In this document: one piece after another, positions 19,967 through 26,095 of the stretch
Numbering within the stretch: position 1 is the stretch's first letter
Layout: each line of letters begins with the position of its first letter
IMG/VR virus record: IMGVR_UViG_2778261277_000006
Location: 1-28,255 of that record
Origin: a virus
Taxonomy: Duplodnaviria; Heunggongvirae; Uroviricota; Caudoviricetes
Length of the DNA stretch: 28,255 nt
Strand: one strand, 5' to 3'
Translations under genes and position numbers: made by a program
The notes under the pieces: model-generated
Database searches by the model: none
What the model was told of the DNA's origin: nothing
What the model saw: only the letters and a program-made list of their open reading frames with translations

Positions 19967-20227
19967 ATGGATTACACAAATCTACCAAAACAAACTTTTG
20001 CTGATTTAATCGCACTCAGGCAAGCAGTCGTAGCTCTAATCAACTTGTTGCCAGAGAAGGAAAAGGAATTAGTTAAAGCGCTTCTTAACAGAACTGCCGC
20101 CGATTTTTCATCATATTCACTGACAGATGACCTTGTGGACCTTCCTGAATTAATTGCAGCGTCCGCCATTAAGCTTACTGAAGAGATTTACCCTCCTCAA
20201 AAATCTTCACAAAATTCCTGCGAGTAA
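19967..20227 (+). CDS. Hypothetical small protein (~86 aa), convergent with and overlapping the 3' end of the 183-codon gene
   Basis: ATG at 19967 with AGAGGTG 4-5 nt upstream (track shows GTG at 19961); acidic 86-aa ORF; terminator-like hairpin plus T8 just downstream; no recognised family. Confidence 0.3.
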   Translation: MDYTNLPKQTFADLIALRQAVVALINLLPEKEKELVKALLNRTAADFSSYSLTDDLVDLPELIAASAIKLTEEIYPPQKSSQNSCE

Positions 20228-20726
20228 CTTCAATGCAATAATCGTAAAACGCCGCAAACTGCTCATCGCGGTGTTTTTTTTCATCTTCAGAAGGAATCAG
20301 CACCGACAATTTTTTATTCAGATCAGCGACGCTGCCCTCCAGTTTTTCAATGAGCGATTCAATATCATCTTTTTCTGACCGCAATGCCGTCGGTGGCGTC
20401 TTCAGAGAACCAGTAATTCTTCCCGGTAGTTTTCCTCTGTAGGTTATCCACACATTCTGCGCCTCTAAAATTATGGGGCGCTTTCCCGGCAACGGTTCGT
20501 TCCCTTCACATAACCCGGCAGCAATATCCCGGAACAATATCTTTGCCTGTTTGATTGCCTCTGTCTCGTAAAACTCCAGCGTTGCCCCTTCAACACGCTC
20601 CATGCTGATATTCAGATCAACAATTTCACCGGCAAAACGTTCTTTATCCTGTAAGGCTACAATTACCGAGACTTTATTCTCAAAATTGCGGGTCCCTTTC
20701 ACAATCAACTCATAGCTTTTAATCAT
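20175..20726 (-). CDS. Hypothetical protein, 183 aa, inserted between holin and endolysin
   Basis: ATG 4 nt after the holin stop (...GAG TAA ttca ATG), with GGGGAGAG upstream, so probably translationally coupled to the late lysis operon; lower GC than flanking genes; no recognised motif. Confidence 0.6.
   Translation of the reverse strand: MIKSYELIVKGTRNFENKVSVIVALQDKERFAGEIVDLNISMERVEGATLEFYETEAIKQAKILFRDIAAGLCEGNEPLPGKRPIILEAQNVWITYRGKLPGRITGSLKTPPTALRSEKDDIESLIEKLEGSVADLNKKLSVLIPSEDEKKHRDEQFAAFYDYCIEVTRRNFVKIFEEGKSLQ
20248..20281 (+). terminator. Putative intrinsic terminator for the small plus-strand ORF
   Basis: AAACGCCGC ... GCGGTGTTTTTTTT: short GC stem with a 12-nt loop followed by a run of 8 T. 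Confidence 0.3.
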
Positions 20727-20730
20727 TGAA

Positions 20731-20946
20731 TTACTCTCCCCGCGCCGCCTTGCGACGGTCCTCTTTTATCTTGAAGTACAGATTCGTCAGATAAGTCAGA
20801 AAGCCCAGTGCCAGACTTCCCAGTACACCAATTGCCGCCCACTGTGACGGGCTGACCTGATCAAGCCACTGTAAAAACCAGTAGCCGGCACTGCCTGCAG
20901 AAGTACCATAGGCAATACCCGTTGAAATTTTGTCCATTGGACTCAC
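20731..20946 (-). CDS. S: Class II pinholin, phage 21 S-like
   Basis: 71 codons, (GTG)[70 protein letters not shown], closely matching the S21 pinholin; two TM segments; probable ATG start at codon 4 (~20937) with a possible upstream GTG start. Confidence 0.85.
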
Positions 20947-21003
20947 AACCTCACCTCCGAATCATCCGGTGGCGTTATATTCAGAAAATTGGGGGAATGA
21001 CGC

Positions 21004-21038
21004 AAAAAAACTGCCAGACGATGGCAATCGTCTGACAG
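21004..21038 (-). terminator. Strong intrinsic terminator upstream of S (candidate tR')
   Basis: Minus strand CTGTCAGACGAT-TGCC-ATCGTCTGGCAG (12-bp stem with one G-U, 4-nt loop) followed by TTTTTTT; ends ~60 nt upstream of the holin start. Confidence 0.6.
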
Positions 21039-21105
21039 CAATAACAGGTAATCCAAAAAACATGGGTAAAACAACAAGTGAGTGATTATGGCGACACGGT
21101 GTCGG

Positions 21106-21136
21106 ATTTTTACCGATGAGCCTTTGGCGTGGTCAA
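21106..21136 (-). promoter_or_regulatory. Candidate late promoter (pR'-like) and Q-utilisation region
   Basis: Minus strand TTGACC (plus 21131-21136), 18-nt spacer, TAAAAT (plus ~21106-21111); palindrome CGACACCGTGTCG at the predicted start; about 95 nt upstream of the terminator. A perfect TATAAT inside an inverted repeat at ~21237-21260 is an alternative. Confidence 0.4.
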
Positions 21137-21285
21137 CCGTGGCTCGCTTGCGTCAACGATGAATTAACGAAGCAAATCCTTTGCAACTTATGCACAAACC
21201 ACCACATCAGCCCTGCTACATTGCAGGATGCACCGTGTTGTTACAGATTATACGTAACAGATGTCCCACTAATAATTGAGTTAAT

Positions 21286-22347
21286 TCACAAAATTGTATT
21301 TGCTGATAACATACTGATTTCCTGAATGGTCTTATTGAACCGTTCTGTCTCAAGCTCAACACCTAACGCCCGACGCCCCAGCGCCATTGCTGCTTTTATT
21401 GTGGAACCGGATCCCATAAAGAAATCAGCAACCAGATCGCCAGGTCGACTACTGGCATTGATTATTTGCCTGAGCATATCCGCCGGTTTCTCACACGGAT
21501 GTTTGCCCGGGTAGAACTGAACGGGCTTATGCGTCCAGACATCGGTATAAGGCACGGAGACTGATACGGAGAAATAGCGCCGGAGAGATTTAAACTCATC
21601 CAGCAATTCAGAATATTTGCGATTCAGTGAATCATAAGATGCCACCAGTTGGTGGTGTGGTTGTTCCAGTTGTTGTTCCTGAAACTTCTCTGCCGCTATA
21701 CGGGAAAACAATGCCTGTAACTTCCGGTAGTCAGCCTCATTCGGCAACTGCCACTGACTGGCACCAAACCAGTGGGAAACCATATTTTTCTTACCAGTGG
21801 CTTCGGCAATCTGTTTTGCCGTTATACCCAGTTCGGCACGAGCATCCCTGAAATACGAAATCAGCGGTGCCATTATGTGCTGTTTGAGTTGCCTTTCTTT
21901 TGCCGCATAGCCGTCACTTTTGCCGCAATATGGCCCCTGGTAATGTTCAGCAAACAGAACACGCTCTGTGGCAGGAAAATATGCGCGCAGACTTTCTTTA
22001 TTACACCCATTCCAACGTCCGGACGGCTTCGCCCAGATGATATGGTTAAGCACGTTGAAACGTTCACGCATCATGATCTCAATATCAGATGCCAGGCGAT
22101 GTCCACAGAACAGGTAAAGGCTTCCGGCAGGTTTCAACACCCGCCAGAACTGGGCCAGACAGTGGTCCAGCCACTTAAGGTAATCTTCATCCCCTTTCCA
22201 CTGATTGTCCCAGTCGTTGGGTTTCACTTTGAAGTACGGCGGATCGGTAACAATCAGGTCAATGGAATCATCAGGCAGGGACTGAATAAAATGCAGGCAA
22301 TCAGCGTTGATTAAATCAACACTGTTTATTTTTACAGTATTTTTCAT
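21286..22347 (-). CDS. Orphan DNA methyltransferase, beta-class, probably N6-adenine
   Basis: 353 aa; motif IV DLIVTDPPYF near the N-terminus and AdoMet motif I DLVADFFMGSGSTIKAA near the C-terminus (IV-before-I order is beta class); no restriction endonuclease gene adjacent. Confidence 0.85.
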   Translation of the reverse strand: MKNTVKINSVDLINADCLHFIQSLPDDSIDLIVTDPPYFKVKPNDWDNQWKGDEDYLKWLDHCLAQFWRVLKPAGSLYLFCGHRLASDIEIMMRERFNVLNHIIWAKPSGRWNGCNKESLRAYFPATERVLFAEHYQGPYCGKSDGYAAKERQLKQHIMAPLISYFRDARAELGITAKQIAEATGKKNMVSHWFGASQWQLPNEADYRKLQALFSRIAAEKFQEQQLEQPHHQLVASYDSLNRKYSELLDEFKSLRRYFSVSVSVPYTDVWTHKPVQFYPGKHPCEKPADMLRQIINASSRPGDLVADFFMGSGSTIKAAMALGRRALGVELETERFNKTIQEISMLSANTIL

Positions 22348-22496
22348 GGATCAGTAAGCGTAACTCTGGTAGGCTCACTCTGCTTTTGCGCTAAAGCAAT
22401 GGGCCGTGGTTCGCTTGTGACCAGTAAGCATGAGCGAATGGCTGGCAGGTGCTACCAACACCCTCCAGCCGCCCATTTTCACAAATTAAAAGTCCT

Positions 22497-22715
22497 TCAT
22501 TGCTGAAGACGTCTGTAACAGCCGAACTGGTAATCTGCCAACCCCGCCATCACCAACTGAGTCAGTATTAACTGACAGCGTTCGCGTGAAAGGTATGTGT
22601 TTTGTGCAATCTCCCCAACCGTTGCCGGTTCGACGCTTAATTCATTAAAAACAACTTTCGCCGTTTCTGTCATATCCTGCTGTTTTAGCATGTCTTTTTT
22701 CCTTCGGGTTAACAT
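22497..22715 (-). CDS. Small putative DNA-binding (winged-helix-like) protein upstream of the methyltransferase
   Basis: 64-72 aa (likely start at the second Met, preceded by AAGGAAAAAAG); ...VGEIAQNTYLSRERCQLILTQLVMAGLADYQ... resembles an HTH recognition region; family not identified. Confidence 0.45.
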   Translation of the reverse strand: MLTRRKKDMLKQQDMTETAKVVFNELSVEPATVGEIAQNTYLSRERCQLILTQLVMAGLADYQFGCYRRLQQ

Positions 22716-22813
22716 GACATACCAATAACTCTTGTCTAAAAAGCCAGCAAGATAAAAAGTCAGTATTCACGACCACCAGCGTGTTTACCGTACTGCACCA
22801 AGTTTACAGGTAC

Positions 22814-22837
22814 AAAAAACCCGCTCGATGGCGGGTT
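22814..22837 (-). terminator. Intrinsic terminator, minus strand
   Basis: Minus strand AAACCCGC-CATCGA-GCGGGTTTTTTGT: GC-rich stem followed by TTTTTT; lies between the plus-strand operon and the wHTH/methyltransferase genes. Confidence 0.5.
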
Positions 22838-22883
22838 TAAGCTGTGTGGCGAAGTAACCACTCTTAACATATTACGATAGTTT

Positions 22884-22912
22884 TTGCGTACGCGTTAGCA
22901 TTTTATTACAAT
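22884..22912 (+). promoter_or_regulatory. Candidate sigma70 promoter for the plus-strand two-gene operon
   Basis: TTGCGT (22884-22889), 17-nt spacer, TACAAT (22907-22912), ~35 nt upstream of the ATG at 22945. Confidence 0.4.
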
Positions 22913-22944
22913 TCTATCGTCCTGAACCTAACCTAAGGCCGTTT

Positions 22945-23766
22945 ATGAATTTCTCTTACACTAAACAAGATGGACTGACAAAGAAGTGTCTTGTCAGAGG
23001 CTTTAAAGTTAACACAGCATCTACTGATATTCTTTTTGATCAAATAGCAAACTCTACAACCTTTCAGATAGGCTCTGTCATCAAAATCAGTGCAGATAAG
23101 CACCTTATGCTGAAGGCATTTGAAACAAACGCCAATTGCCACTATCTTCATGTAGCCATTTACAACCCTAAAGCACAAGTTTCTATAACTCCTTTAAAAA
23201 AAGCTGCAAGCGATTTACTGGATGTAGAGAACCTTGATGATCTTCATGCGTTCTTAATGATAAAAGGCAACCAGATAGCATCACTTATGCAAATCTCAAC
23301 TAATTGGTGCGAAGTTAAGATTTCTAAAATATTTAATCAATTTGGTATATCTATAACGCCAACAGCCATTCTAAAAAACAATGTTATTCAGAAAATTAAA
23401 GAGGACAAATTAAAAGCTCTGCATCTCAACATTGACGTTGATGAATCTGATTTCGTTCAAGCACCTAGTGTGTTAGAGTCAATATTCAAAAAAGAACCAA
23501 CAATTAGGTCCAAGGGCATCTCTGGGCACTTAACAATAGATGCTAAAGGTAATGCTGAATTAGCTCAGTCTATTGAGAATAATCCTGCTACATGGGTTGA
23601 TGATTTGGACAGAGATTTTTATATTGAGACGAAAAAAGGCGACAAGTTTTATAGTGACGATTTGAAAGTAACTAAGGTTTACTTTACCGTACCATATGGT
23701 TCTAAGTCTATAAATGCGAAATATGCTAAAGAAATCCTAGAGGATTTTGTAGCAAAAGAGCTATAA
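22945..23766 (+). CDS. Hypothetical soluble protein, 273 aa (first gene of AT-rich two-gene operon)
   Basis: ATG start, long ORF in a strongly AT-rich segment, opposite strand to all flanking phage genes; no Walker, HNH, HEPN or other motif recognised by eye. Confidence 0.7.
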   Translation: MNFSYTKQDGLTKKCLVRGFKVNTASTDILFDQIANSTTFQIGSVIKISADKHLMLKAFETNANCHYLHVAIYNPKAQVSITPLKKAASDLLDVENLDDLHAFLMIKGNQIASLMQISTNWCEVKISKIFNQFGISITPTAILKNNVIQKIKEDKLKALHLNIDVDESDFVQAPSVLESIFKKEPTIRSKGISGHLTIDAKGNAELAQSIENNPATWVDDLDRDFYIETKKGDKFYSDDLKVTKVYFTVPYGSKSINAKYAKEILEDFVAKEL

Positions 23767-23790
23767 TGATAGAAAACAAAGGAGGCTAAG

Positions 23791-24276
23791 ATGCTAAAAA
23801 ATATTAACACAACAGGGCTGATCGTATCAGCACTAAACATCATAGCCTCGTTAGGTTTCTCGATTTTTTTAACTGGAAGCCTAACTAATAATACTGATGC
23901 ATTAAATCTTGTAGCTAATGTATTCTCAATATTATCTGGATTTTTGCTTTTAGTAATAACTATGTCAGGTGAAAACTCAACGTTGCTTAGTAACATGAGC
24001 GCACTGGACGCAGCAAATCAAGAAAAAAGATTCTTGATGCGCTTTAACAAATACTATGCTCTTTTTTTACTTTACATACTCACATTGGCTTTGATTTTTA
24101 TATTCTATTTAATAACAAAAGATAAAACCAATAACTCAGCGATATTAACGAGCTTAAAATCTATAATTGGCCATTCAATTGCATTTCTAACATGCTTCTC
24201 ATTCATCCAGTCAACATTCATTCCACTTAAAATAAAAGAGCTATTTAAGGAAAAAAGAGAACTTAATAAGAAGTAA
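23791..24276 (+). CDS. Hypothetical integral membrane protein, 161 aa, four predicted TM helices
   Basis: AAGGAGG 6 nt upstream of ATG, 24 nt after the upstream stop; four hydrophobic segments (approx. residues 8-29, 38-58, 88-108, 124-144); Lys-rich C-terminus. Confidence 0.7.
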   Translation: MLKNINTTGLIVSALNIIASLGFSIFLTGSLTNNTDALNLVANVFSILSGFLLLVITMSGENSTLLSNMSALDAANQEKRFLMRFNKYYALFLLYILTLALIFIFYLITKDKTNNSAILTSLKSIIGHSIAFLTCFSFIQSTFIPLKIKELFKEKRELNKK

Positions 24277-24299
24277 ACTAAACCATTAGTTTACTTCTT
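24268..24299. terminator. Perfect 14-bp hairpin at the 3' end of the plus-strand operon (candidate bidirectional terminator)
   Basis: AAGAAGTAAACTAA-ACCA-TTAGTTTACTTCTT; includes the operon stop codon; T-rich sequence follows on both strands; lies between convergent Q and the operon. Confidence 0.5.
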
Positions 24300-24324
24300 C
24301 CCGAACAGATTTTAGTTTTACATG

Positions 24325-24678
24325 TCACAGCATATGTAGTACGCCGTCGATAAACCCCATTGCTGTCTGTAATTCTTTTCTGATGGTCCCATCAGAACAT
24401 TTTCGTTTCTTAGCTATACTACGTAATGATATACCGATAACAAAATGAGCAATGATCAGCTCATATTCTTCTGGTTTATACTTCCGCAGGCGGGCGACAC
24501 AGCCATCAATCATGATGCCTTCATCATCATCACACTTGAGGCGTGACTTTTTACCATGTGGCAAAAGCCCCTTGAAGCCTGCCGCTATCGACTGCCAGTC
24601 GACACCACTATTTTCTGCTGCAGCCCATGCCCCCCAGCGGTCTAAAACCTCATACATATCACGCCCCATTACTATCAC
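24325..24678 (-). CDS. Q-family late antiterminator-like protein (QuuD/DLP12-type small Q)
   Basis: 117 aa, ...VLDRWGAWAAAENSGVDWQSIAAGFKGL...CDDDEGIMIDGCVARL...KCSDGTIRKELQTAMGFIDGVL; shares the signature blocks recalled for the DLP12 Q-like protein; downstream of rusA as in DLP12-type nin regions. Confidence 0.65.
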   Translation of the reverse strand: MIVMGRDMYEVLDRWGAWAAAENSGVDWQSIAAGFKGLLPHGKKSRLKCDDDEGIMIDGCVARLRKYKPEEYELIIAHFVIGISLRSIAKKRKCSDGTIRKELQTAMGFIDGVLHML

Positions 24679-25036: not shown

Positions 25037-26095
25037 TTATGCTTTCCACTTCAGGACGCCCGAATTTCTCACGTGTATTAAAAAACGAATCAGTAACACC
25101 AACTGGCTACCGTGTTTCGCTTCAAATTCTTTTACCCCGGCATGCAGTTCGTTATGGCATTTACGACACAGCGGAATAACGAACAAATCATCAGCCTTTG
25201 TTCCCATTCCTCCCAGACCATGTCCAATGATGTGATGCGGATCATCTGCCTGATTGCCGCACGTCATGCACTTCTGTGTTTTTACCCAGCGCGTATATAC
25301 AGGCATCTCTTCCCGTTGTGGTTTCTTGCGCTGGAGATACTGAGCCGGAGACTCCGGATCAACAGTGATGCTTACCACCGTCTTTTCCTGTGGCGGGTTA
25401 TGTTGCTGGTGAGAGCAAGACGGCGGCACTATATTTTTTGTGCGCTGTTTCAGTATGCTGGTGGCTGTCTGCTCTCCCGGTACAATGTCGCTCTCCCGGT
25501 ACACAGAGCGGATTTTTTCTACGGGCAATCCCAGTGAACGATGTAATACTGCCTCCGGTAGCGCCTCCGCCACCTGATTGCATACCGCCCACCAGGATAA
25601 TTCAGCCAGAGATAATTCGCGCTCCTGCGCACCGCTTATTGCATGGCGGATGACATCAATCATCCAGGCTGTCAGATTTTGTTGAGCAAGCAGCTCCAGC
25701 GATTCTGATGTCTGGTCACGAAGCTGGTTGTCGCAGTGCCAGCACAACACCATCGCGCCGGTACCGTAACGGTGTATGACGGTTTCACTGTGATGGTAAT
25801 CACCATGAGGCCACTGGCAGGATTTAACATTGCGCAACAGCCAGTCAGACAATGCACCAGTACCACCAGCAGCACGAATCACACGCTCATTGCTGAAAAA
25901 CGGCAGTAATGATTTATCCTCCGCCAGCGGCTGGCGAACGGCGGGAACAACTCCGGACGGCAGACTGCGCATGCTTTTCGGTTCCGGCTCCACCAGCACC
26001 CGGGTATTGTGGAATACCGGCATGGATTCACGGCCCGGCTTAACGATCACCAGCCCGAGTTCCGGTACAAGAACAGGTCGAAGTAATACCCGCAC
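25037..26095 (-). CDS. nin-region protein with C-terminal Cys/His zinc-finger (HNH-like) motif; resembles DUF968-type prophage proteins
   Basis: 352 aa; C-terminus CMTCGNQADDPHHIIGHGLGGMGTKADDLFVIPLCRKCHNELH (CxxC...HH...CxxCHxxxH); lies immediately upstream of rusA. Family name is from memory. Confidence 0.65.
   Translation of the reverse strand: MRVLLRPVLVPELGLVIVKPGRESMPVFHNTRVLVEPEPKSMRSLPSGVVPAVRQPLAEDKSLLPFFSNERVIRAAGGTGALSDWLLRNVKSCQWPHGDYHHSETVIHRYGTGAMVLCWHCDNQLRDQTSESLELLAQQNLTAWMIDVIRHAISGAQERELSLAELSWWAVCNQVAEALPEAVLHRSLGLPVEKIRSVYRESDIVPGEQTATSILKQRTKNIVPPSCSHQQHNPPQEKTVVSITVDPESPAQYLQRKKPQREEMPVYTRWVKTQKCMTCGNQADDPHHIIGHGLGGMGTKADDLFVIPLCRKCHNELHAGVKEFEAKHGSQLVLLIRFLIHVRNSGVLKWKA

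Follow-up and report, generated by a model that had tools for sequence, protein, structure and literature searches.

A conserved, predicted structured leader precedes an M.EcoGII-family adenine methyltransferase gene in the late operon of a lambdoid phage

The stretch of viral DNA analyzed here over its full length of 28,255 nucleotides (the window; IMG/VR record IMGVR_UViG_2778261277_000006, Caudoviricetes) represents the beginning of a lambdoid (pro)phage late operon. Its minus strand carries a gene for an N6-adenine (m6A) methyltransferase, which is preceded by a 149-nt spacer and, upstream of it, by a gene for a small protein predicted to fold as a winged helix. Comparing this spacer among related phages, we find that it is probably a functional structured leader of the methyltransferase mRNA. 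With somewhat less confidence, we read the whole unit as a late anti-restriction methylase provided with its own structured mRNA leader and an accessory winged-helix protein. The enzyme is a member of an already known family; the leader is the new lead. The module consists of the following features:

22497-22691, minus strand: small gene, predicted 64-aa acidic winged-helix protein, phrog_331 (PHROG assignment and structural model)
22348-22496, minus strand: putative structured leader of the methyltransferase mRNA, 149 nt (length, conservation and covariation)
21286-22347, minus strand: beta-class methyltransferase of the M.EcoGII family, 353 aa (Pfam PF01555 and sequence identity)

We gathered relatives of the module in two ways: a small-gene-anchored set of about 100 loci, taken from IMG/VR and from one genome per species, and a methyltransferase-anchored set of 74 loci, which reaches more divergent methyltransferases. 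The spacer measures 147-154 nt in 44 of its 46 distinct versions, the remaining two being 142 and 285 nt long, and wherever it is present in the methyltransferase-anchored loci it lies immediately 5' of the methyltransferase ATG. Its mean column identity is 75-79%, with invariant blocks, and its conservation equals or exceeds that of the flanking coding DNA, also across genera in which the small proteins share 53-58% identity. Rfam 15 gave no match at the gathering score anywhere in the window and none up to E = 5 overlapping 22348-22496; the sub-threshold matches (isrK, STnc100, STnc130, MicF, NsiR1, Arrc14 and P9) all fall outside the spacer. Among the matches listed, most phage records leave the leader region unannotated, and a few have a 'hypothetical protein' call there. 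A conserved small open reading frame (ORF) inside the spacer was considered and rejected, as the frames that start at the invariant AUG (22476) range from 7 to about 50 codons among relatives (MGGWWVL-stop is one of them) and share no peptide. Tandem Trp codons were also discarded as a coding signal, given that they are not conserved and sit in a covarying stem.

Covariation points to base pairing within the spacer. The first covariation set was a MAFFT alignment of 32 spacer versions analyzed with RNAalifold, which returned 32 predicted pairs with 98.5% of the cells paired, against 21-39% in shifted-register controls, and compensatory change in 7 pairs versus 1.3 in shuffles (0 of 500). With a covariance model of this alignment, the leader was recovered in more divergent loci, and the model-fitted alignment held 102 compensatory cells versus 20.5 in shuffles, with 26-41% of cells paired in the shifted-register controls. 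Because a fitted alignment leans towards its own model, we made a structure-independent realignment of 49 versions using MAFFT only (A5). On A5, RNAalifold again recovered the helices P1, P3 and P4, with ten covarying pairs. P1 (22430-22476, minus strand) is a long, irregular hairpin, AUGGGCGGCUGG...CCAGCCAUUCGCUCAU, whose GUGYU-GRUAR-CAC top is conserved; its pairs on A5 include 39/66 (UA:39 GC:6 AU:4), 40/65 (GC:41 UA:6 AU:2) and 37/68 (GC:41 AU:4). P3 and P4 form a stem-loop (22372-22405, minus strand) in which GGC...GCC encloses GCUU-loop-AAGC, with pairs such as 107/142 in P3 (GC:38 AU:8) and 118/128 in P4 (UA:43 GC:6).

Besides these local hairpins, a candidate long-range helix can form between the 11 nt preceding the ATG (GCUUACUGAUC) and GGUCA.CAAGC (22413-22422), about 60 nt upstream; it reaches position -1 of the ATG. 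On A5 this helix is 90% paired and shows 24 compensatory cells versus 7.5 in shuffles (0 of 500). Part of the same GGUCA.CAAGC segment can alternatively pair with UUCGCU at the foot of P1, and covariation is seen in this alternative hairpin too. Both helices centre on GGUCACAAGCGAA and are mutually exclusive, which suggests that the leader could be a switch between the two pairings.

Regarding the strand, P1 cells contain 66 G.U and 11 A.C combinations, and G.U exceeds A.C in the long-range helix as well. The large excess of G.U over A.C in P1 points to an RNA structure on the methyltransferase strand rather than to a DNA palindrome. An antisense RNA was considered and not retained: P1 and the long-range helix favour the sense strand, while the alternative hairpin, whose mismatches are all A.C, fits the antisense strand better. 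At 22464 (minus strand), within P1, GGTGGG of most relatives corresponds to GGAGGG in the window; this A, shared only with loci L174, L144 and L139, replaces a U.G or U-A pair by an A opposite G.

The distribution of the three elements indicates which of them belong together. In the small-gene-anchored loci, a methyltransferase gene lies 151-159 nt downstream in nearly all cases. Five loci with enough downstream DNA are exceptions: four have no methyltransferase and one (L029) has a truncated copy. The spacer is retained in three of the four methyltransferase-less loci, and these look like deletions. Among the methyltransferase-anchored loci, the spacer is found directly upstream in 68 of 74 and the small gene in 47 of 74; in the other 27, a Q gene or unrelated cargo stands directly upstream instead and the spacer is unchanged. 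Since the spacer is so much more constant than the small gene in these loci, the comparison assigns it to the methyltransferase, and makes the small gene an optional companion that is almost never found without the module. The original prediction had proposed dedicated regulation of the methyltransferase by the small protein, and the 27 loci that keep an unchanged spacer without it argue against this claim; the cis element dedicated to the enzyme is instead the spacer, which that prediction did not single out as a structured leader. We also looked for co-variation between small-protein clade and leader type and saw none, with proteins of 53-58% identity adjoining near-identical leaders. In the most divergent modules (L125, L123, L130, L131 and L137), where the small protein is 39-48% and the methyltransferase about 64% identical, only P1 of the leader is recognisable and the spacer spans about 119-147 nt.

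The methyltransferase ORF of 353 aa has DPPY at residues 35-38, before FMGSG (FxGxG) at 310-314, which is the beta-class order. It matches Pfam N6_N4_Mtase (PF01555) over residues 29-338 (E 3e-42, 145 bits, with a cutoff of 26.7), and solved beta-class enzymes such as M.RsrI, M.MboIIA and CcrM match it at both ends. Identity is 80% to M.EcoGII over the full length (348 aa, 2 gaps), 81% to the enzyme of phage 1720a-02 and 88% to Anc291; the M.EcoGII and Anc291 sequences were taken from a machine-read PDF of Table S1 of PMC11551740, and the percentages are approximate. According to that paper, Anc291 is a reconstructed ancestor of the M.EcoGII clade and an active, largely sequence-independent DNA and RNA m6A methyltransferase, and the recognition domain of M.EcoGII is central, with four helices at residues about 160-237 (PMC11551740). 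The central helix-turn-helix recognition region of the window enzyme aligns to M.EcoGII without gaps. By sequence, then, it is related to M.EcoGII over its full length and at the level of an orthologue. Murray et al. 2018 (PMC5778455) describe M.EcoGII as a member of a very large prophage methyltransferase family, naming the 1720a-02 enzyme as very similar, and give E. coli O104:H4 prophages as the source of M.EcoGI and M.EcoGII. M.EcoGII methylates adenines in any context and blocks many restriction enzymes in vitro (PMC5778455), and double-stranded DNA, single-stranded DNA and RNA are reported as substrates of the family. Constitutive expression of M.EcoGII is reported to harm the cell, and M.EcoGI and M.EcoGII are described as silent in the lysogen (PMC5778455, PMC12707154). 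The nearest phage records with the same pair of small ORF and methyltransferase are SfV, cdtI, mEp460, Ayreon, phiP27, 1720a-02 and many Stx2a/2c/2d phages.

These results bear out the original prediction of an orphan beta-class m6A methyltransferase of phage origin, for which anti-restriction appears the most likely role. The absence of an adjacent endonuclease, also proposed, was confirmed by checking the neighbouring genes by domain: holin, DUF1327, lysozyme, Rz, Nu1 and gpA on one side, and the small ORF, two plus-strand ORFs and Q on the other, include no restriction gene. The sole nuclease-like domain in the neighbourhood belongs to a DUF968/HNHc protein (25037-26095) beyond Q, for which SfV and cdtI have, at the same position, a counterpart with an HNH endonuclease annotation. 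For the window enzyme, the expected product would be motif-less methylation appearing only after induction. The original prediction had taken the lack of a new methylated motif in lysogens as grounds for rejecting it; this criterion is flawed for the M.EcoGII family, since such a lack is expected from enzymes that are silent in the lysogen and motif-less.

The module follows a set of elements that are typical of Q-dependent late transcription. Such a cassette is described as a Q gene, a PR' promoter with a pause element, a terminator and the late genes (bioRxiv 10.1101/651190); PR' is reported to be constitutive, with transcripts in lysogens stopping at the terminator tR' and Q permitting read-through (PMC7547250). 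On the minus strand of the window, the order is Q, an AT-rich insertion, a conserved block, a terminator, the small ORF, the spacer, the methyltransferase, a second terminator, holin, DUF1327, lysozyme, Rz, Nu1 and gpA (the large terminase subunit). The upstream elements are:

24325-24678, minus strand: Q-type late antiterminator gene, 117 aa (Pfam Phage_antitermQ, E 8e-46)
22910-24324, plus strand: AT-rich two-gene cargo insertion with ORFs 22945-23766 and 23791-24276; context, outside the module
22839-22909, minus strand: conserved block that abuts Q in insertion-free relatives; probable PR'/Q-loading region
about 22811-22838, minus strand: intrinsic terminator at the tR' position (stem and T run, conserved)

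The Q protein has a distant match to the solved Q21 structures 6p18/6jnx (E 1e-3). The terminator reads AAACCCGC-CATCGA-GCGGGTTT followed by a T run, with an 8-bp G+C-rich stem and a fold of -12 to -13.7 kcal/mol; it is kept in seven phages, including ones of another Q type, and the records of SfV and Ayreon carry a terminator annotation for it. In an alignment of the region 5' of the small ORF, the terminator and the 120 nt that follow it are common to all seven phages, while the 70 nt preceding it, that is, the block at 22839-22909 (...CGCAAAAA...TGTTAAGAGTGGTTACTTCGCCACACAGCTTAAACCCGCC), are common to the five phages with this Q type. The order is Q, 183 nt, small ORF, methyltransferase and stx2A in 1720a-02, and Q, about 100 nt, terminator, small ORF, methyltransferase, terminator and holin in SfV; the general layout of Q, terminator, small ORF, methyltransferase and stx or holin is seen in SfV, Ayreon, cdtI, phiP27, 1720a-02 and Stx2a_1447. 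Because block and terminator directly follow Q in the insertion-free relatives (1720a-02 and SfV), the terminator is best read as the tR' of the late operon, a gate opened by Q rather than an insulator. The original prediction had placed a terminator at 22814-22837 and let it isolate the pair from upstream transcription: the terminator is there, at slightly wider limits, and its tR' position speaks against the isolation. The block at 22839-22909 probably holds the PR'/Q-loading region, and Q gene, terminator and late genes are all present and collinear with the relatives. The small gene and the methyltransferase would thus be the first cargo of the Q-antiterminated late transcript. A consensus scan found no sigma-70-like promoter between the terminator and either gene (minus strand, 22348-22810, spacer included), and PR', the pause element and a Q-binding element were not recognisable from the alignment of the upstream region.

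In the lysogen, the presumed PR'-tR' transcript would be a short terminated RNA like lambda 6S, StxS or IsrK. The presumed PR'-to-tR' leader (22814-22893, minus strand) has a weak, sub-threshold isrK match of 17.8 bits. The 120-nt stretch that separates the terminator from the small ORF (22692-22810, minus strand) is conserved in all seven phages compared, a different Q type included.

Regarding the small protein, the ORF starts at a conserved ATG at 22691 with a GAAGGA ribosome-binding site and encodes 64 aa; its relatives have 63-65 aa and begin with MLKQQDM. A predicted hairpin pairs the start codon completely (unpaired probability 0.001) and leaves the ribosome-binding site looped out. The protein belongs to PHROG 331, has no NCBIfam model, and gave only winged-helix hits in Pfam, all below the cutoff (DprA_WH 18 bits, TrmB 17 and MarR_2 15). 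An AlphaFold model made with 30 homologues gives an H1-b-H2-H3-wing fold with a mean pLDDT of 74.7. The protein is thus modelled as a bare winged helix, with no above-threshold match to the TrmB, MarR or ArsR families; the name 'TrmB family transcriptional regulator' found on homologues is an automatic PGAP name. The helix-turn-helix-like ORF of 64-72 aa in the original prediction is therefore real, with 64 aa and a predicted winged helix, and it is not of the Xre type, as no HTH_3 match was found with Pfam. Down to 40% identity, only the N-terminal MLKQxDMT and the helix 3 motif RCQL(I/L)LTQ...AGL are conserved, and C39 is the single Cys conserved across the family. No Com-family Pfam match was found in the protein. 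In L174, the position of the winged-helix gene immediately 5' of the leader is taken by a gene for a 61-aa CxxC...CxxC protein (2608-2793); we considered this protein as a Com homologue and dismissed it for lack of Pfam support. The winged-helix protein could be an accessory of the methyltransferase module that acts on the leader RNA, on its DNA or on the enzyme.

Taken together, we propose the following course of events. In the lysogen, PR' transcripts would stop at tR', and the enzyme must be off at this stage because it is toxic. Upon induction, Q-modified RNA polymerase would pass tR' and transcribe the small gene, the leader and the methyltransferase before the lysis and head genes. The enzyme would then methylate adenines of the replicating phage DNA in any sequence context, and progeny DNA would so be shielded from many restriction systems of the next host. 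The leader would be a cis-acting mRNA element that sets the amount of methyltransferase, most likely via translation initiation, and the winged-helix protein would act on the leader, as RNA or DNA, or on the enzyme, with a logic like that of Mu Com on mom built from unrelated parts. The methyltransferase ATG has no Shine-Dalgarno sequence, unlike those of the small ORF and the holin gene. That the leader controls translation initiation of the methyltransferase is a serious possibility, to which we give slightly less than even weight. In a bolder form, which we regard as rather unlikely, the spacer would represent an undescribed class of cis-regulatory RNA of about 145 nt (P1, a P3/P4 domain and a hub with exclusive partners) that gates the translation of a toxic methyltransferase and is read by a trans factor. 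The candidates for such a factor would be the 64-aa winged-helix protein as a non-homologous Com analogue, the methyltransferase itself through autoregulation, or a small ligand. If true, lambdoid late gene expression would have a widespread control point that has gone unnoticed, as the element sits in the stx2 late transcript of many Stx2 phages and in about half of complete E. coli genomes.

Several of our results weigh against parts of this picture. The covariation comes from few clades and few independent events, in closely related sequences with much of the leader invariant; single-sequence thermodynamics of the leader gives a z-score of only -2.0, and the A.C mismatches of the alternative hairpin point to the other strand. 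The methyltransferase start is not unusually occluded by single-sequence thermodynamics (0.40 mean unpaired versus 0.26-0.55 for neighbouring starts), and the alternative, 'open' hairpin is thermodynamically favoured; as thermodynamic masking is not distinctive, we keep the masking of the start only as a hypothesis drawn from covariation. The leader is the same whether the small gene is present, absent or of another clade, which argues against an obligatory partnership between protein and leader, and a pI of 5.1 makes the small protein acidic, an unusual property among proteins that bind nucleic acids. M.EcoGII is reported to be active when expressed from a plasmid (PMC5778455), so the small protein, and probably the leader, would be unlikely to be needed for catalysis. 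The non-specificity of the window enzyme is extrapolated from its 80-88% identity to the family members. Finally, the consensus promoter scan found zero sites in 22839-22909, so the placement of PR' rests on synteny.

One might explain the conservation of the spacer by recent common descent, a DNA-level site or an unrelated small RNA or antisense transcript, and dispense with a functional leader. The close relatedness of the sequences, the many pairs that never vary, the z-score and the antisense-leaning hairpin all suit this explanation, and prophage small RNAs are reported to be common in this part of lambdoid genomes. However, conservation of the spacer matches or surpasses that of the coding DNA on either side, even across genera where the small proteins have diverged; its length is fixed and its position immediately 5' of the ATG is constant. 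Moreover, compensatory changes exceed both controls on the structure-independent alignment and G.U is greatly above A.C in P1, and we hold an explanation free of functional RNA to be distinctly improbable. A DNA-based alternative is also contained in the original prediction, in which a controller like the C proteins of restriction-modification systems would bind CGCTTACTG repeats and regulate a methyltransferase promoter, the pair being an insulated moron. Of the 150-bp intergenic region with direct repeats that it described, the region (149 nt) and the repeat are present: GCTTACTG(A/G)TC occurs at 22349-22359 and 22419-22429 with 10 of 11 positions identical, and its 8-mer occurs three times in the window versus 0.57 expected, so that the repeat is locally improbable. 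The exact 9-mer CGCTTACTG is found only in the ATG-adjoining copy. This copy 2 (GCTTACTGATC, 22349-22359, minus strand) abuts the ATG and is conserved, whereas copy 1 (GCTTACTGGTC, 22419-22429, minus strand) has its 5' part in a loop that varies among relatives, with only GGTCA conserved, and the two do not make up a conserved operator. A search for repeats and palindromes in 22300-22950 gave only the terminator and RNA-type hairpins, with no C-box-like palindromes upstream of 22691. The predicted winged-helix fold, the TrmB name on homologues and the terminators that flank the pair on both sides could be taken in favour of a controller. Yet the protein is an acidic winged helix that reaches no Pfam family at the cutoff, Xre/HTH_3 included, and has no restriction gene beside it; the promoter scan of 22348-22810 was empty, the spacer tolerates G.U as RNA pairing does, more than a third of the methyltransferase loci keep the same spacer and lack the small gene, family members are silent in the lysogen, and the terminator sits where tR' does. 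We consider this controller very unlikely.

Two further alternatives grant the small protein a larger part than our preferred reading does. In the established model for Mu, Com opens an inhibitory stem-loop at the mom start. By analogy, the winged-helix protein would bind the leader RNA, for instance P1, and open a masked start, and the methyltransferase would be translated only once late transcription has yielded the activator. The com-mom and com-hia5 pairs offer a precedent; in addition, the small gene is almost never apart from the leader and methyltransferase, two exclusive helices around GGUCACAAGCGAA both covary, the methyltransferase start has no Shine-Dalgarno sequence, and the solvent-facing R, Q, T and Q of helix 3 are invariant even at 40% identity, in the same divergent loci that retain P1. 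On the other side, one third of the modules have no small gene and their leader is unchanged, the protein is acidic and carries no known RNA-binding family signature or Com homology (no zinc finger and one universal Cys), and the 'open' hairpin is thermodynamically favoured anyway. On balance, such an activator seems unlikely. Alternatively, the small protein could be a partner of the methyltransferase itself, as an inhibitor, a chaperone or a factor that biases it to phage DNA or away from RNA, the leader being independent. Its dependence on the methyltransferase module, its acidity, the strongly conserved N-terminal octapeptide MLKQxDMT and a leader that does not change with the small gene are all compatible with this role, to which we nevertheless grant little probability. 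Our preferred reading remains that of a methyltransferase leader with an accessory winged-helix protein.

The surroundings of the module fit a late operon with cargo at its borders. The 22910-24324 insertion has a G+C content of 33.6%, compared with 52.1% for the window, and encodes a 273-aa protein (phrog_23561) and a 161-aa membrane-like protein; the ORFs 22945-23766 and 23791-24276 gave zero Pfam, NCBIfam and PADLOC matches. What fills this slot differs among relatives: 1720a-02 and SfV carry no insertion, phiP27 has a GIY-YIG gene between Q and the small ORF, and cdtI and Stx2a_1447 have other two-gene plus-strand cassettes. The site, bounded by Q and the late-promoter block, resembles a hotspot for cargo, perhaps of defence or exclusion genes. 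We considered the two plus-strand ORFs as a cognate restriction or defence partner of the methyltransferase and rejected them, as they have no domain matches and the slot varies among relatives that share the same methyltransferase. Downstream of the methyltransferase lie:

21010-21273, minus strand: 3' non-coding region of the module with a strong terminator at 21010-21039; candidate STnc100/PasD-like small RNA locus
20731-20946, minus strand: P21-type holin S gene, start of the lysis cassette (Pfam Phage_holin_2_1, E 1e-35)

The 340-nt gap between the methyltransferase and holin genes contains a sub-threshold Rfam STnc100 match (24.5 bits, E 0.01), and the terminator at 21010-21039 has a fold of -20 kcal/mol (z -4.9). 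STnc100/PasD small RNAs are reported beside the holin-lysozyme genes of Stx-type prophages, and the gap is also where Stx phages carry the tRNAs and stx. P21-type holin and lysozyme genes are usually neighbours; here, a 183-aa DUF1327 gene (phrog_2091; 20175-20726, minus strand) separates them.

Among known systems, the nearest to the enzyme are M.EcoGII and M.EcoGI, which share with it 80% full-length identity, the motif order and the prophage origin; the same small ORF precedes the gene in 1720a-02, and the difference lies in 20% of the residues of the window enzyme. Neither the genomic leader nor the upstream small gene nor the Q/tR' context is mentioned in the text available of the M.EcoGII papers (PMC5778455 and PMC11551740) or of the other literature cited here, and the same holds for the small gene's one-way dependence on the module. 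In Mu, Mom is described as a toxic adenine-modifying enzyme, made late and silent in the lysogen, whose translation requires Com, a 62-aa protein encoded just upstream (PMC3299994). In Mu-like prophages of Haemophilus and Neisseria, mom is reported to be replaced by genes for near-non-specific m6A methyltransferases (hin1523, hia5 and nma1821), with com kept (Drozdz et al. 2012, PMC3299994). The likeness to com-mom consists of a small upstream gene, a predicted structured start region, a toxic and broad adenine modifier and late expression. However, the small protein here is a predicted winged helix and not the four-Cys zinc finger of Com, the two genes are 149 nt apart while com and mom overlap, the enzyme is unrelated to Mom and of another methyltransferase lineage than Hia5, and the small gene is missing from a third of the modules. 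The module may therefore work like com-mom without belonging to the com-mom family.

With the lambdoid Q cassette (PR', a sigma-dependent pause and tR', with lambda 6S, StxS and IsrK as examples of its RNAs) the window shares the Q gene, the conserved block, the terminator and the late genes, and the same three elements, small ORF, leader and methyltransferase, stand between tR' and stx2 in Stx phages. It differs by the 1.4-kb AT-rich cassette between Q and the promoter block and by a Q that is only distantly Q21-like. As for the C proteins of restriction-modification systems, a small helix-turn-helix-type protein just upstream of a modification gene is common to both, whereas here the protein is a winged helix and not Xre, it is optional, and neither a restriction gene nor a conserved operator pair accompanies it.

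The unit is prevalent. Some part of the 21000-22950 region was matched in 2816 of 5426 complete E. coli genomes, with at least 80% coverage in 360 and up to eight copies per genome. The leader was found in phages of Escherichia, Shigella, Klebsiella, Citrobacter, Morganella, Providencia and Hafnia, and upstream of stx2 in Stx2 phages.

Chromatin footprinting and m6A tagging make wide use of M.EcoGII as a reagent, and how phages silence and time so toxic an enzyme is not covered in the text available of the literature cited here. The locus described in this work shows the native context of the enzyme, as an early cargo of Q-antiterminated transcription with a conserved leader that is absent from Rfam. 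Given a motif-less and lysogen-silent family, the relevant material for following its activity is DNA from virions or induced cells, and not lysogen methylomes. The leader and the one-way dependence of the small gene are offered as leads rather than demonstrated functions: the leader is a concrete candidate for the control of the enzyme, and the small winged-helix gene is a second one. Since many Shiga-toxin phages have the unit between Q/tR' and stx2, and since it is prevalent in E. coli, any regulatory role it has would be broadly relevant.

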